Sequence record: PV654397.1
Reading direction: 5' to 3' (one strand)
Length of the DNA stretch: 64,000 nucleotides
From: Escherichia phage WPEC5
Under the pieces are notes generated by a model. It searched no databases. It had not been told where the DNA came from and saw nothing but the letters and a program-made list of their open reading frames with translations. Positions 26,672 to 44,893 of the stretch are shown piece by piece; within the stretch, counting starts at the first letter, position 1; each line of letters starts with the position of its first letter. Position numbers and translations under genes: made by a program.

Positions 26672-27820
26672 ATGTTACCTTTTGTTAGAATGTTTGATTA
26701 TGGGAATGAAGCACCTACCAACTCTGGGCGTTTTAAAATATATTCCAGTGATTCTATGTATCTTCATGATACTTATACTGACAAGTTGTATGCATCTTCT
26801 GCGACGAATTGGGGTACTGGTACAGGTGTAGCATCGAGTAAATTTATTCTTTGTGCGGAGAATGTTAAACGAGTTCTATTGGAAGATAACAGTAGTGATT
26901 GTCAATTGTATGAAGAGAAAGGTACTGGAAAAGTTTTTATCACTGGTAACACGAAGGCATTCACTGGTGTAACTGATAGAAAAACTTTGTGGACGGACTG
27001 TACTACGTGGATAACATCAAGTGGTATTAATGTTTCTGATATAAAATACATGAGTAGTTTTTATGATATGAAGGTGAATTTGATAACAAACGATGGTACA
27101 TTGTATTGTTGTGGAGCTAACAATATATCGAACATATCATCATTTGGTGATGGCACAAACATTAATTCTTTTAACACATTCAAAAGAGTAGATACTATAA
27201 CTTCGGTTAAAAAGGCAGTTGGTAACATTTATTTGCGAGAAGATAATACTTTATGGGGTTGTGGTTTTAACTATTACTACCAGTTGGGCACGGGTAATCA
27301 AACTTCTATTACTGGGGTGACGATGATTTCTTCGGATGTTATAGATTTTAATGTAAGTTATCAGAGTACATTTTTTATCAAATCGGATAATAATTTGTAC
27401 GCTTGTGGTAAACAGTTCGGTGCACAATATGGGAACGAATTTGGTACAGGTGGTACTTCCTCTTCTACTGATATACAATATAAAACTCCCACATTATTGA
27501 GTGCAGGTGTTTATAGTTTATATACTTGTGTTGGTAACATGGCATCACATATAGTTAAAGGTGATGAAGTACTTTATGCATCTGGAAGCAACTCGTCTGG
27601 TCAATTAGGTGTTGGTAATAATAATAATCAGTACTCCTATACTCCTTCATATACTTCGTTTAATACCTCTTGTAATTTGGTACGCACCCCATCTGGTTCA
27701 CTTATACTTACTGATACTGGAAAATTATATTATTGTGGCCTTGCAATAGTAGTAATGGGTGGTATTTCTGGACAGAACGTTCTTAATTATACAGAAGTCG
27801 ATATGTCATTTTTGCAGTAA
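26672..27820 (+). CDS. RCC1-like beta-propeller repeat protein, leader family member 1 (382 aa)
   Basis: Leader MLPFVRMFDYGN; repeated blade motifs (GxNxxxQLGxG, e.g. GFNYYYQLGTGNQT, GSNSSGQLGVGNNN); extended -10 TGATATAAT and AGGAG SD. Confidence 0.8.
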   Translation: MLPFVRMFDYGNEAPTNSGRFKIYSSDSMYLHDTYTDKLYASSATNWGTGTGVASSKFILCAENVKRVLLEDNSSDCQLYEEKGTGKVFITGNTKAFTGVTDRKTLWTDCTTWITSSGINVSDIKYMSSFYDMKVNLITNDGTLYCCGANNISNISSFGDGTNINSFNTFKRVDTITSVKKAVGNIYLREDNTLWGCGFNYYYQLGTGNQTSITGVTMISSDVIDFNVSYQSTFFIKSDNNLYACGKQFGAQYGNEFGTGGTSSSTDIQYKTPTLLSAGVYSLYTCVGNMASHIVKGDEVLYASGSNSSGQLGVGNNNNQYSYTPSYTSFNTSCNLVRTPSGSLILTDTGKLYYCGLAIVVMGGISGQNVLNYTEVDMSFLQ

Positions 27821-27828
27821 ATTAATAT

Positions 27829-27854
27829 GCCAGTACTTGATACTGGCTTTTTTG
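27829..27854 (+). terminator. array cassette terminator hairpin
   Basis: GCCAGTACTTGATACTGGC then TTTTTTG; -10 box TATAAT and AAGGAGG SD of next gene follow. Confidence 0.6.
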
Positions 27855-27887
27855 ATTAAATATAGTATAATGAATAAAGGAGGAAAT

Positions 27888-28997
27888 ATGTTACCTTTTG
27901 TAAGAATGGTTAAGTACGGGAATATTGCACCAGTACCGAAAAAAATAAAGAAAGTTATAGCAGGATATGATAATTTATATGTACTATATGGTGATGGTTC
28001 GCTATATGGTTGTGGAATCAATAACTATCAACAGTTAAATATTGATGGAACTGCTACACAAAATAATTGGGTACTAATTACCAATGGTGTTAGTAATGCA
28101 TGGGCTGGTGGATACAATATTTTATATTTGAAAGAAGATAAATTTATAATGCACGGAACTAATGTCTCATTAGGTTTAGGAAATACTACAATTCCATTAG
28201 GTGGAGTAGATGTAACTTCTTCATTCCCAGATATCTCTAATATTAAAATGATATCCATTGGTTTTGATTCAATGCACTATGTTAGTGCTGATGGTACAAC
28301 TGTATATGGAAGAGGTATGAACACAAATGGTTCTGTTGGTTCAGGTAGTACTTACTCACAGAGTACTTTCACTTCAGTACTGAATAATGGAACTAATCAG
28401 GTTATTGATATATTTGGTAACGTTAATAATACAGTGCTTCTAACATCGAATGGTGAGCTTCGAGCATGTGGGACAAGTGCTTATGGTTCTATAGGAAATG
28501 AAACTGGTAAGTGGACATCGTTTGGTTTAAAATTATCTGGCACTAAAATAATGGGTGGTAATGGGTATAGTACGCTTGCATATACAAATTCGGGAATGTA
28601 CCACTCAGGGTGGCAGTTAAATGGGGAACTAGGAAATGGTTTAGATACTAACGTACAGGTATATCCATTTCAATTTAACTCTAAAACGATAGATAGCAAG
28701 ATAGATAAAATTGCCAAATCATCATCTGGGTCATATGTTAACATGTACTCAACAACAGAAGGAAAGATATATACGACAGGTTCGTTTGGTAAAAACGGGT
28801 CAACTACTGCATTGAATTTGTTCACCAATACATTAACACTTATAAATTACAATCCAGATACCGCCTCGTTGTATACGTGCACAAACTTCAGTGTTGTGTA
28901 TGATGGTAATGAAACTATTGCTGTAAGTGGTAGTCCTACATATGTACCAGGGGGCGTTGCCGCTAATAGATGGACTACAATTCCATTACCCAAGTAA
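27888..28997 (+). CDS. RCC1-like repeat protein, leader family member 2 (369 aa)
   Basis: Start set to family leader MLPFVRMVKYGN (track start 27759 runs through terminator and promoter); TATAAT box and AAGGAGG SD. Confidence 0.75.
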   Translation: MLPFVRMVKYGNIAPVPKKIKKVIAGYDNLYVLYGDGSLYGCGINNYQQLNIDGTATQNNWVLITNGVSNAWAGGYNILYLKEDKFIMHGTNVSLGLGNTTIPLGGVDVTSSFPDISNIKMISIGFDSMHYVSADGTTVYGRGMNTNGSVGSGSTYSQSTFTSVLNNGTNQVIDIFGNVNNTVLLTSNGELRACGTSAYGSIGNETGKWTSFGLKLSGTKIMGGNGYSTLAYTNSGMYHSGWQLNGELGNGLDTNVQVYPFQFNSKTIDSKIDKIAKSSSGSYVNMYSTTEGKIYTTGSFGKNGSTTALNLFTNTLTLINYNPDTASLYTCTNFSVVYDGNETIAVSGSPTYVPGGVAANRWTTIPLPK

Positions 28998-29003
28998 TAC
29001 TAT

Positions 29004-43008: not shown

Positions 43009-43014
43009 TATAAT

Positions 43015-43042
43015 GCCAGTACTATGTACTGGCTTTTCTTTT
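43015..43042 (+). terminator. array cassette terminator hairpin
   Basis: GCCAGTACTATGTACTGGC then T-rich tract. Confidence 0.55.
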
Positions 43043-43691
43043 ACATATTATATAATGTGAATGCAGTTACTTTACCAGTTGTTGTTAGTTCATTATAAAG
43101 ATACTCCAAGATTCTCGCACACTCTAAGTATATCTCGATATCATCATGAATAAGTGAGTACTGAAATAGCTGTTCTTCAGATAATTTGTATTGACTTCCT
43201 TTTAATGAATTGAGAATATCTTTCACATCATCAAGTACTGGGTAAAGTACGAAATCTTCATCATATTTTGAAGCAATAAATTCAAATCCACCACCATCAG
43301 TACTAGATATACCAATCAGTACTTTATCAATCAAGTTAATGTTTATATAACGGTTGTGATTTGGGTGAATTGAAATCTCAAACATACGAGTACTGTTACA
43401 ATCAACATCAATATACAAATATACATCGTTGAATTTATAAGTTAAGCAACCGTACTCAAGAAAATCAGAGCAAATAATTGATGAGTTTTTTCTCGTCTCT
43501 GCGTAATGCATCTTGATATTCTTTTCACGCATAAGTAATTCGAACTTTGCACTAAACTTGCCACCAGCAAGATAGTTAGTATTAGGACGTTTGTAACTTG
43601 CAACTGGTCGGTGGGATGATGTAAAGTATTTTTTTGTGAATCGTTTATGTTTAGTGAAATATTCTTGATAGAACTTACTTCTTTTATTCAT
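43041..43691 (-). CDS. hypothetical protein (216 aa), opposite-strand insertion in the array
   Basis: ORF with GAGG SD; N-terminus MNKRSKFYQEYF resembles the small-protein family; no nuclease motif recognised. Confidence 0.5.
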   Translation of the reverse strand: MNKRSKFYQEYFTKHKRFTKKYFTSSHRPVASYKRPNTNYLAGGKFSAKFELLMREKNIKMHYAETRKNSSIICSDFLEYGCLTYKFNDVYLYIDVDCNSTRMFEISIHPNHNRYININLIDKVLIGISSTDGGGFEFIASKYDEDFVLYPVLDDVKDILNSLKGSQYKLSEEQLFQYSLIHDDIEIYLECARILEYLYNELTTTGKVTAFTLYNM

Positions 43692-43768
43692 GAGTACCTC
43701 AATTAAATCGCTGTAAAATTGTACATTATAAAATGATTAAATAAAGTATAACACAAGGAGATTTTATC

Positions 43769-44893
43769 ATGTTACCTTTCGTATTGTTATTTGATTATGG
43801 GAACGAAAAACAAGAAAGTTCTTATGATGTTAGTGTATATGGAAACAATAACTACATTTTAAATAAACAAACTGGAAACCTTTTTGCATCCGGTGCTGCG
43901 GCATTCATGGGTGATAACACAGTTAAGTATTATATTACCCAAATAGAATCAAATGTTCATAGCTGTGAGATAGGTTTCCTATCATCATGGATAATTAAGA
44001 AGGACAAAACTGTTTTCATTTTAGGAAACAAAAGCAGTATAGGATTAACTGGTTCGACAACATCATGGTTCGAAATTACAAATTTATTTTCTGCTGTTCC
44101 TGAAATATGGGACAACCTATTTGAATGTAAAGTTCAATTGGGATATAACTGTATACGTGTTATGACACCACTAGGATCAATCTATGCGATTGGTACAAAC
44201 ACTTATGGTGCATTGGGTACTGGTACTACATCCTCATCAACTTCGTTCGTTAAAAGTGGTGCTGTGGATGCTGTACGCATGGAATCAACAGAACGTTCAG
44301 TGTTCTATCAAAACAGTTATGGACAATGGTTTGGATGTGGTGATAACACATATGGTATACTAGGTCTAGGAACTACCGCTAGTCGTGTAAACTCATACAC
44401 CGCACCAGTATGGACTAATGCAGAAGCTGTTAGCTTCTCTAACCGTGGGATCATATACAGCCTCAATGGTACTCTATACTCATGTGGTGACAAAGTTAAT
44501 GGTCAGCTAGGGGATGGATATACACAAAGCATAGACGCAGCCAGGAGCACACCATACACCATAGGAACCGCATTCCAAATTGGTAAGGCAATAACATCAG
44601 CTACACAAGCATCAGCCAACGTATTCATTGGTAAAGATAATAAGTTCTATGGTACTGGTAGTATTGCTGCTGGTATAAATGGTAGTACTAGTGCTGCATT
44701 AAGTAAAGTTACTGCGTTATCAGCAGCACTACCACCTGACATTACATACAATGATATTATAACATTCAATACAGGGACCGTAACTTTTATTCAAGCAAAA
44801 GGACAACTATATTATGTTGGTAGAAGAACTTACATAGATAATAGTTCAGACGTTACCACACAGTTCAGTGTAATTGGTGGCTTAGATAATTAA
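43769..44893 (+). CDS. RCC1-like repeat protein, divergent leader (374 aa)
   Basis: Leader variant MLPFVLLFDYGN; motifs GTNTYGALGTGTT, GDNTYGILGLGTT, GDKVNGQLGDG; AAGGAG SD. Confidence 0.75.
   Translation: MLPFVLLFDYGNEKQESSYDVSVYGNNNYILNKQTGNLFASGAAAFMGDNTVKYYITQIESNVHSCEIGFLSSWIIKKDKTVFILGNKSSIGLTGSTTSWFEITNLFSAVPEIWDNLFECKVQLGYNCIRVMTPLGSIYAIGTNTYGALGTGTTSSSTSFVKSGAVDAVRMESTERSVFYQNSYGQWFGCGDNTYGILGLGTTASRVNSYTAPVWTNAEAVSFSNRGIIYSLNGTLYSCGDKVNGQLGDGYTQSIDAARSTPYTIGTAFQIGKAITSATQASANVFIGKDNKFYGTGSIAAGINGSTSAALSKVTALSAALPPDITYNDIITFNTGTVTFIQAKGQLYYVGRRTYIDNSSDVTTQFSVIGGLDN

Follow-up and report, generated by a model that had tools for sequence, protein, structure and literature searches.

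The branched tailspike sets of phage CBA120 and the Klebsiella jumbo phages RaK2 and K64-1 comprise many receptor-binding proteins with a common N-terminal anchor, and these anchors are folded domains of ~100–300 residues on trimeric β-helix spikes. In T-even phages, the loci for internal proteins are polymorphic between close relatives. These proteins (IPI, IPII, IPIII, and Alt) share a conserved N-terminal peptide of ~10 residues, which is the sole common part of a diverse and fast-changing set (PMC3012670). In phage phAPEC6, gp003, 005, 006, 007, 009, and 010 were detected by mass spectrometry (MS) of purified virions, with 1–4 peptides per protein, and the authors preferred an internal, DNA-organizing role (PMC7247149); gp1 of GAP32 is also structural (PMC5259590). 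The virion association of the orthologues of the proteins described below is taken from these two papers.

The locus analysed here lies in a 64,000-nucleotide stretch of Escherichia phage WPEC5 (PV654397.1; hereafter, the window), which is from an Asteriusvirus-like jumbo coliphage of the 121Q/phAPEC6 group. As with the T4-type capsid-targeting sequence, a short conserved N-terminal peptide is found on otherwise unrelated virion proteins, but the L/I-x-E protease site present at the tag end in T4 is absent from the window genes (the phage's own protease may have another specificity), the cargo consists of 40-kDa propellers and a fibre-tip fold rather than small, basic proteins, there are 15 members in the array, and the virion location is more likely external. 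As in the CBA120, RaK2, and K64-1 systems, variable heads are swapped while the N-terminal attachment part stays conserved and is where recombination occurs; here, however, a 12-residue tag is placed on predicted single-domain propellers with putative host binding. The array also resembles tandem multigene families under concerted evolution in having a tract that is near-identical in paralogues and different in orthologues, with sharp boundaries, mosaic haplotypes, and few haplotypes over many copies. Unlike in those families, the tract is very short (~36–60 nt plus the junction), lies at the 5′ end of genes that cannot otherwise be aligned, and also serves as the crossover point for whole-cassette exchange between phages.

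Organization of the cassette array

The tag MLPF[VA]RM[FV][DK]YGN opens 15 plus-strand genes spanning 26672–44893. Residues 8 and 9 are FD in eight genes (26672, 29069, 30325, 32719, 38317, 39480, 40711, and the variant 43769, MLPFVLLFDYGN) and VK in seven (27888, 31505, 33982, 34792, 36001, 37186, and 41872), and all of these coordinates, taken from a sequence-only reading of the window, proved correct. A degenerate 36-nt pattern matched 14 sites in the window (0.00 expected), a six-frame peptide search added only 43769, and neither search found further leader copies in the window. As that reading had also claimed, Ala5 is restricted to VK leaders (six of the seven VK and none of the FD genes), the exception being Val5 with VK in 27888. 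Conservation is sharply limited to nt 1–36, and the paralogous propeller bodies share only 16–31% identity despite their near-identical leaders. The best DNA matches to the array are found in Asteriusvirus phages (~98% identity), and the longest one-piece cover of the array by any single record is ≤38%.

Cassettes 1 to 15 encode RCC1-like propellers, with the exception of cassette 7. Cassette 1 (26672..27820) carries the exact modal FD 36-mer at 26672–26707, and its orthologue in 121Q has a VK leader. The VK leader of cassette 2 (27888..28997) is an intermediate haplotype, its Val5 codon (GTA) being a single step from both GTT and GCA; the orthologue leaders are MLPFGRMLKYGN in Turkey3 and MLPFARMMNYGN in ELP-22. 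Cassettes 3 (29069..30250, with AAC as codon 12), 4 (30325..31434), and 6 (32719..33909) have FD leaders. Cassettes 4 and 6 share the leader plus ATCACACCTG (Ile-Thr-Pro) on unrelated bodies; the orthologues of cassette 4 have VK in 121Q, G-VK in phAPEC6, and G-IR in ELP-22, and those of cassette 6 in the same three phages have MLPFARMMNYGN. Cassette 5 (31505..32647) carries the exact modal VK 36-mer. [quoted passage not shown] Cassettes 8 (34792..35922) and 9 (36001..37176), both with GGA, and 10 (37186..38304) have VK leaders, and cassette 11 (38317..39465) has an FD leader; upstream of cassettes 10 and 11 is a ribosome-binding site alone, in cassette 10 without the terminator/promoter junction described below. 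In cassettes 12 (39480..40640) and 13 (40711..41856), the FD codons TTT GAT are joined to the VK-linked TAC GGA. In TH47, the orthologue of cassette 12 starts with a VK leader, and the breakpoint falls at nt 14–28. Cassette 14 (41872..43008) has a VK leader, as in 6/6 phages holding that body. The outlier cassette 15 (43769..44893) has a diverged FD leader (codons TTC GTA TTG TTA TTT GAT TAT), with 8/36 bases that do not match the modal FD 36-mer, and was found only in nine records with a flank ~98% identical to the window. It is set apart from the rest of the array by a minus-strand gene (43041..43691) for a 216-aa protein of phrog_34359 (function unknown), a paralogue of 23907–24566.

The leader DNA had been described as two-state. 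This holds insofar as the modal FD and VK 36-mers are each exact in three genes, but 27888, 33982, 39480, 40711, and 43769 depart from them, and GGG/GGA and AAT/AAC are freely varying alternatives. The two types are interleaved, as claimed; their order along the array (FVFFVFVVVVFFFVF) contains 9 runs (P(≥9) = 0.49), which means that they are arranged at random.

Most cassettes are preceded by a junction of the type found at 27829..27887 (plus strand), consisting of a hairpin (GCCAGTAC-N5-ATACTGGC) with a T run, followed by aaatatagtataatgaataaaggagg and then the ATG. Terminator-like sites number 26 compared with 7.8 expected, and the upstream junction haplotypes are common to FD and VK cassettes.

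Fourteen of the 15 products are seven-bladed RCC1-like propellers. In the four cassettes tested, PF00415 (RCC1) scored 36–49 bits and PF13540 (RCC1_2) scored 29–38 bits against Pfam cut-offs of 21.7 and 22, respectively. The AF2 model of 39480 (pLDDT 89.6, pTM 0.88) is a closed seven-bladed propeller whose top Foldseek match is UVR8 (E 2e-25, TM 0.80), followed by RPGR, HERC2, and RCC1; residues 1–19 form a coil with no secondary structure, and residues 1–7 have a pLDDT <50. The remaining product, 33982, was modelled by AlphaFold (pLDDT 92; residues 1–10 <50) as a TNF-like sandwich plus a glycine-rich domain, as in the fibre-tip adhesins of the Pam3 gp24/Salmonella phage S16 gp38 type, and is thus predicted to resemble phage tail-fibre tips. 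The helical N-terminal docking domain is absent from this model, in which the first strand runs from residue 20 and residues 1–10 are unfolded. In both modelled folds, which are unrelated, the tag is therefore predicted to lie outside the fold; where Pam3 gp24 and S16 gp38 have a docking domain, the present proteins have an unfolded 12-residue tag, and the same tag is also placed on the propellers. The phage propellers share with eukaryotic RCC1 the seven-bladed fold and the repeat signature, but nothing links them to Ran or chromatin, and the GenBank label 'regulator of chromosome condensation/DNA condensation protein' names a fold, not a function. The source of the 'DNA condensation protein' label is fold similarity to RCC1 only.

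Leader haplotypes and cassette exchange

The claim that there are two alleles and no continuum stands within the window, but not among relatives. Across nine related phages, the 117 leaders comprise 45 different 36-mers and encode 21 different peptides, including hybrids (G5+FK, V5+IK, and V5+VK), a stepwise series (VK, LK, LE, LD, and FD), further intermediates (MN and LS), and mosaic haplotypes (GTA+VK, GTT+IK, GGA+FK, and FD+TAC). Intermediate leaders, which the sequence-only reading had named beforehand as refuting two alleles, thus exist at the family level. The exact VK 36-mer is found in 32 records and the exact FD 36-mer in 15, with 1–7 copies per record (one each in slurp01 and A4 and two each in Turkey5 and JNE01). 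FD leaders number 1 to 9 per genome, and none is found in 121Q, phAPEC6, or ELP-22, although the same bodies are present.

Fifteen genes of Salmonella phage 7t3 carry the tag, and in these, Pro is encoded by CCG, CCA, or CCT, Phe by TTT or TTC, and Arg6 by AGG, AGA, or CGT, with Lys (AAG/AAA) at this position in two genes; M-I-P-F, R/K, Y, G/A, and N are retained. In Erwinia phage Hallingskeid, 10 genes are tagged, and GAP32 gp1 begins with MLPFSRIIQYGN. P3 and F4 never vary in a set of 44 distinct leaders, in >90% of which R6, Y10, G11, and N12 are also kept, whereas positions 5, 8, and 9 hold 6, 5, and 10 different residues, respectively; the positions that vary in the distant jumbo phages are precisely those at which FD and VK leaders differ. 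These comparisons show that the leader peptide is under selection. It is carried by RCC1 propellers, the Gly-rich fibre-tip fold, the 'virion structural protein' phrog_6011, and a 215-aa protein.

In orthologue comparisons, nonsynonymous differences per codon came to 0.19 for leaders and 0.33 for linkers, and bodies had a dN of 0.047 per site and a dN/dS of 0.25. Orthologues thus differ more in leader and linker than in the body, whereas paralogues are nearly identical there. The leader type switches on bodies that are 96–99.7% identical, with breakpoints within or just past the leader (e.g. window 39480 versus TH47, Turkey3 versus WPEC3 with 99.7% identity from +60, and Turkey3 versus phAPEC6). 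Where paired orthologues differ in their upstream neighbours (175 pairs), homology sets in somewhere from -110 to 0 relative to the ATG, with four exceptions that are artefacts of locus ends. Identical leader haplotypes are also carried by bodies ~21% identical. Gene conversion or recombination between cassettes, which had been proposed from the window, is therefore well supported as acting on the leaders.

It is highly improbable that leader type merely records tandem duplication from one ancestral FD and one ancestral VK gene. A small body clade (32719, 38317, and 39480) is entirely FD, as such a history would predict, but leader type is not associated with body similarity overall (mean identity 21.1% versus 21.1%, permutation p = 0.44), orthologues differ in type, and bodies with synonymous sites that must be saturated carry near-identical leader DNA; leader type thus does not follow simple duplication. 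If the leaders fell into two functional classes, one acidic (F8 D9, often with E13) and one basic (V8 K9, often with K13), that had separate docking sites or paired by charge, the phage would be dividing its cassettes into two sets. This reading is consistent with the coupling of residue 9 charge to residue 13 charge (6/0 versus 2/7, Fisher p = 0.007), the near-equal type numbers in seven FD-bearing phages (8:7, 9:8, 9:7, 8:6, 4:3, 7:6, and 7:8), and the retention of leader type in most orthologue groups among these phages. However, co-conversion of a tract to +50 would likewise give the 9/13 coupling, and the phages that give near 1:1 ratios are close relatives with cassettes in common, which leaves these ratios non-independent. 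Together with the absence of FD from three phages holding the same bodies, the FD copy numbers as low as one, the switches between near-identical orthologues, the intermediates (FK, LK, LE, LD, MN, and LS), and the ten residues tolerated at position 9, this makes the two-class proposal of the sequence-only reading unlikely. Still less probable is conservation at the nucleic acid level, whereby the 36 nt would serve in translation initiation, form an RNA structure, or act purely as a recombination site, and the peptide would be incidental. Codons 2–4 and 6 are synonymously invariant (log10 probability of the L2, P3, F4, and R6 codons, assuming independence, -22.5), and the leader includes codons that are in the minority in gene bodies (CCT, 31% of Pro; AAG, 26% of Lys; GGG, 9% of Gly), so that usage bias does not explain the codon choice. 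Moreover, several minimum-energy folds join CCUUU of codons 3–4 to AAAGG in the ribosome-binding site, and the leader serves as a crossover site; a role at the DNA or RNA level, and not conversion alone, could lie behind the strong nucleotide identity. Nevertheless, nine junction-plus-leader stretches showed no structure beyond shuffled sequence (folding z-scores -0.43 to +1.26), 7t3 and Hallingskeid keep the peptide with synonymous sites free to change, and Leu7 has three alternative codons in FD leaders (TTG, TTA, and CTA).

Virion association and the role of the leader

The phAPEC6 proteins detected in virions correspond to cassettes in L002. In Vequintavirinae, relatives with a similar N-terminus are encoded directly after the tail-fibre genes, and one of these, CB7_37, has been confirmed by MS. 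The N-termini of the Vequintavirinae proteins resemble the tag only loosely. In a cryo-EM study of phage phiTE, its RCC1-like protein was not placed.

The leader might alternatively be a capsid-targeting sequence as in T4 internal proteins, bringing diverse cargo, such as host-defence binders, into the prohead for injection with the DNA. The logic of a short N-terminal tag on hypervariable cargo is the same, the products are virion-associated with an inner-body role proposed by the phAPEC6 authors (PMC7247149), and these phages are distantly related to T4, with a gp55-like late sigma factor. This explanation is nonetheless doubtful: the tag end has no consistent protease site (residues 11–13 are G-N-x, with Glu13 in 4/15), a rigid, closed 40-kDa propeller would be ill-suited to passage through the tail tube, and the Vequintavirinae relatives sit within the tail-fibre module. 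The sole non-RCC1 cargo, 33982, has an external tail-fibre-tip fold, which points to an outward location.

We consider it probable that the 12 codons encode a portable virion-docking tag (M-[LI]-P-F-x-R-[MIL]-h-x-Y-G-N) and that FD and VK are functionally equivalent haplotypes spread by conversion or recombination. The tag is followed by a short Pro-rich linker and an interchangeable head domain, the products being virion proteins, and in its unfolded state would most likely dock every head at one common site on the particle, probably in the tail or fibre apparatus. In this way, the set of surface-binding heads that the phage displays would be changeable. Most cassettes come with a terminator, a promoter-like box, and a ribosome-binding site of their own, and because the junction and the 36-nt leader are the only DNA common to the cassettes, homologous recombination and gene conversion would act there, moving whole cassettes between phages and overwriting leaders. 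Change is tolerated at positions 5, 8, and 9 of the tag, and two haplotypes at these positions, the widespread VK and a probably derived, patchily distributed FD, may have been copied onto many cassettes in this lineage, so that the random two-state pattern would reflect concerted evolution rather than two leader functions. The interpretation initially drawn from the window is thus partly supported: the two leader versions would be short stretches of variant DNA that were copied from gene to gene at three tolerated positions, not two functional classes.

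Tagged genes and their leader peptide

The window belongs to a jumbo coliphage in the Asteriusvirus (121Q/PBECO4/phAPEC6) group. Its database DNA matches are ~98% identical, but no single record covers more than 38% of the array of tagged genes in one piece, so the array is a mosaic. The array (26672-44893) comprises 15 plus-strand genes, named here by their start coordinates, each of which opens with a near-identical 36-nt stretch encoding a 12-residue leader (the tag). A degenerate pattern detected 14 leader copies in the window and none in shuffles, and a six-frame peptide search of the 64 kb added only a diverged copy at 43769. 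Residues 8-9 divide the leaders into eight FD copies (MLPFVRMFDYGN; MLPFVLLFDYGN in 43769) and seven VK copies (MLPF[AV]R[MI]VKYGN), in exact agreement with the coordinates and the 8-to-7 split of the sequence-only reading, which had also rightly confined Ala5 to VK leaders (six of the seven). Its description of the DNA as two-state holds only approximately: codon 5 of 27888 is GTA, a single step from both GTT and GCA, 39480 and 40711 combine TTT GAT with the elsewhere VK-associated TAC GGA, codon 7 of 33982 is ATT, and the GGG/GGA and AAT/AAC codons vary among the copies. The two types are interleaved, as had been noticed, but only as they would be in a random order (FVFFVFVVVVFFFVF, 9 runs).

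RCC1 repeats were found above Pfam cut-offs in 14 products, whose bodies share 16-31% pairwise identity. The 39480 product was confidently modelled as a seven-bladed propeller (pLDDT 89.6), with UVR8, RPGR, HERC2, and RCC1 as the top structural matches. The remaining cassette, 33982, encodes a glycine-rich protein predicted to have a TNF-like tail-fibre-tip fold; sequence and profile searches of this protein against PDB gave no match, and fold comparison of the model alone succeeded. In both models, residues 1 to 7-10 have pLDDT <50 and the fold begins at about residue 20; thus, the leader is part of neither fold. A relative of the glycine-rich protein, PVP-SE1 gp19, lies in a neighbourhood of replication genes. 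Other body types bear the tag as well: one assigned to phrog_6011 (‘virion structural protein’) and another 215 aa long. Three metagenomic RCC1-like proteins (P0017, P0025, and P0031) share a different N-terminus, MPTFYNF.ENG..YSFDD.FVP, a loose echo of M-x-P-F...G-N that may represent an analogous tag in other phages.

Within the window, leader conservation ends sharply at nt 36, and codons 2-4 and 6 are invariant despite including minority codons (log10 probability under independence, -22.5), which, taken alone, could reflect selection at the nucleotide level. As judged by sequence comparison, distant relatives settle this question in favour of a conserved peptide. Salmonella phage 7t3 possesses 15 tagged genes (MIPF-x-[RK]-[IML]-h-x-Y-G-N) in which synonymous sites are free to vary, Erwinia phage Hallingskeid possesses 10 with Gln9 or Lys9, and the leader of GAP32 gp1 is MLPFSRIIQYGN; even among FD leaders, Leu7 is encoded by TTG, TTA, or CTA. 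A comparison of 44 distinct leaders shows no variation at P3 and F4 and >90% conservation at each of R6, Y10, G11, and N12, whereas six residues occur at position 5, five (hydrophobic) at position 8, and 10 at position 9. The differences between FD and VK sit exactly at these tolerant positions 5, 8, and 9. RNA folding of the junction plus leader was no better than that of shuffled sequence, and a scan of IMG/VR with the leader DNA yielded 121Q itself as the single match.

Cassette exchange at a common junction

Upstream of most cassettes lies a junction that starts with a common hairpin (GCCAGTAC...GTACTGGC followed by a T run) and continues through an AT-rich box to a ribosome-binding site; in four cassettes, the ribosome-binding site stands alone. 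The same perfect hairpin, CCAGTAC-loop-GTACTGG, which has terminator-like scores on each strand, follows 10 cassettes (27829-27847, 29002-29024, 31438-31463, 32654-32672, 33913-33939, 34725-34747, 35936-35954, 40647-40665, 43015-43033, and 44898-44924), and terminator-like sites number 26 against 7.8 expected. A sigma-70 promoter scan returned 77 sites, below the 93.8 in shuffles; by its sequence, the junction promoter is not of the sigma-70 type. Minus-strand ORFs of 68-76 aa that run across junctions and leaders and share ..FPYLTILAKGNIF.. (27806-28021, 33849-34055, and 34716-34946) are by-products of the repeated junction and not genes.

Clustering of the bodies gave about 30 orthologue groups across ten phages (10-17 per phage), several of which bear different leaders in different phages. 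Homology boundaries were mapped by a BLAST-based scan: in 175 orthologue pairs with unlike upstream neighbours, body homology starts at -110 to 0 relative to the ATG, with four exceptions that are locus-end artefacts. The boundaries are bimodal, lying at the start of the junction or at the ribosome-binding site. Upstream junction haplotypes are common to FD and VK cassettes, and some unrelated bodies share the leader plus the next 8-10 nt (e.g. 30325/32719 and 26672/38317). The leader's variable core thus amounts to a short stretch of heterology within the only recombination substrate that the cassettes have in common. These alignments show the genes to behave as a cassette system of at least 30 body types, whose members are exchanged at the common junction.

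Leaders are also switched on near-identical bodies. Cassette 39480 (FD) and its TH47 counterpart (VK) have unrelated upstream DNA and bodies 96-97% identical from codon 10, and every leader difference falls between nt 14 and 28. Turkey3 (A-IK) and WPEC3 (V-L-FD) cassettes are 99.7% identical from +60 to +1100, but identity falls to 75% across the leader and to 67% across the linker, the short Pro-rich stretch that follows it, and a second pair, Turkey3 (FD) and phAPEC6 (VK), shares the same linker and a 97.5% identical body, with differences only at leader nt 9-33. A comparison of 151 orthologue pairs gave a body dN of 0.047 (dN/dS 0.25), and nonsynonymous differences per codon amount to 0.19 in the leader and 0.33 in the linker. 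The 5' end is thus the most conserved region between paralogues and the least conserved between orthologues, a signature of concerted evolution. Both this reversal and the leader switches support the earlier proposal of gene conversion between cassettes, and no association was found between leader type and the body tree.

Probable origin of the FD and VK haplotypes

The leader survey covered the arrays of a further nine Asteriusvirus phages. Phage CMSTMSU (MH494197), in which many cassettes are frameshifted, with ORFs of 16-190 aa behind intact leaders, was left out of the statistics; these frameshifts look like sequencing error rather than biology. The 117 leaders from nine phages represent 21 peptides and 45 distinct 36-mers. 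FD leaders are absent from 121Q, phAPEC6, and ELP-22, which carry VK together with variants containing G5/T5/V5, I8/L8/M8, and N9/R9 (e.g. MLPFARMMNYGN and MLPFGRMIRYGN). Hybrid leaders exist (MLPFGRMFKYGN and MLPFVRMIKYGN), and phage A4 contains MLPFVRMLEYGN, MLPFVRMLDYGN, and MLPFVRMFDYGN in one array, so that all steps of the series VK, LK, LE, LD, and FD are seen. The idea of two alleles and no continuum is therefore nearly correct locally but fails across the family, where intermediates occur. Exact matches to the FD 36-mer occur in 15 records, with 1-7 copies in each, and those to the VK 36-mer in 32.

FD and VK are best explained as a pair of haplotypes that occupy tolerant positions and that conversion or recombination probably spread over many cassettes in one sub-lineage. 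The outlier cassette 43769 is a candidate source of the FD haplotype in that it has TTATTTGATTATGGGAA in common with the Leu7 FD variants, although FD is also found in phages without this cassette. Cassette 43769 and the minus-strand gene 43041-43691 occur only in nine records with a ~98% identical flank.

The sequence-only reading had offered two functional classes of leader as an alternative, which we regard as improbable. The charge of residue 9 is reversed between the types and is coupled to that of residue 13 (acidic/acidic 6, acidic/basic 0, basic/acidic 2, and basic/basic 7 in the window and the compared array loci L001-L011; Fisher p = 0.007), and leader type is stable in most orthologue groups of FD-bearing phages. 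A functional charge patch or co-conversion could underlie the coupling, and a co-conversion tract extending to about +50 together with recent shared ancestry accounts equally well for all three observations. The same bodies are present in FD-free phages, which argues against FD being required, and the differing positions are tolerant; two functional classes are thus unsupported. It is similarly doubtful that the leaders make up two docking codes, an acidic one (FD, LD, and LE, in many cases with Glu13) and a basic one (VK, IK, and LK, in many cases with Lys13), for two virion sites or for charge pairing; if they did, a lineage of Asteriusvirus would have invented a second address and would sort its binding heads between the two. 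Under the preferred haplotype reading, the two-version question is a modest one, an example of conversion at a tolerant site mimicking discrete functional classes.

Other paralogues adjoin the tagged genes. About nine minus-strand paralogues of 59-78 aa, five of which end in ..VLKLI[SAD][IM], form a tandem array at 23741-26565, and in relatives 10-20 copies immediately precede the tagged array. Tandem minus-strand paralogues of 104-123 aa with several hydrophobic segments, resembling membrane proteins, occupy 44929-47030 and beyond and are ~84-98% conserved in all relatives. Minus-strand paralogues of 216-219 aa (phrog_34359) flank the tagged array on both sides (23907-24566 and 43041-43691), the latter standing between 43769 and the remaining cassettes.

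Possible function of the tag

Mass spectrometry of purified phAPEC6 virions identified orthologues of six cassettes (PMC7247149), and GAP32 gp1 is structural (PMC5259590). The RCC1-like proteins CB7_37, 4MG_038, and PsgM04F ‘tail protein’ of Vequintavirinae have a similar short hydrophobic N-terminus and P-x-P linker and are encoded directly behind tail-fibre genes; CB7_37 was confirmed by MS. The phiTE cryo-EM study neither mentions nor places the RCC1-like protein of that phage. Identity of the RCC1 proteins with the ‘hairy’ fibres of phAPEC6 was ruled out: CBB bears the hairs yet lacks an RCC1 gene, and such a gene is present in GAP32.

The tag occupies a place equivalent to that of the docking domain of Pam3 gp24 and S16 gp38 and, by this analogy, is probably a docking peptide that loads interchangeable surface-binding heads onto the virion. 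The main rival is a capsid-targeting sequence (CTS) like that of T4, which follows the same logic (PMC3012670); however, the tag has no consistent protease site, its cargo proteins are rigid, and one of them has a predicted fibre-tip fold.

The RCC1 paralogue array itself is already known from genome papers on 121Q-type jumbo phages (including PMC7247149 and PMC5259590), in which the RCC1-like genes are ‘DNA condensation’ paralogues without an assigned role. The tag, the exchange of cassettes at a common junction, and the fibre-tip cassette are not mentioned in those papers and appear to be new with respect to them, although their kinds, virion proteins with a tag plus variable cargo and concerted evolution, are known and form no new category. 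A vague annotation is thereby replaced by a testable model in which a 12-residue tag puts interchangeable binding heads on the virion. If this model is true, jumbo phages could be made to display foreign proteins through the tag, in the way the T4 CTS is already used, and the array would become a candidate for determining surface adhesion or host range.
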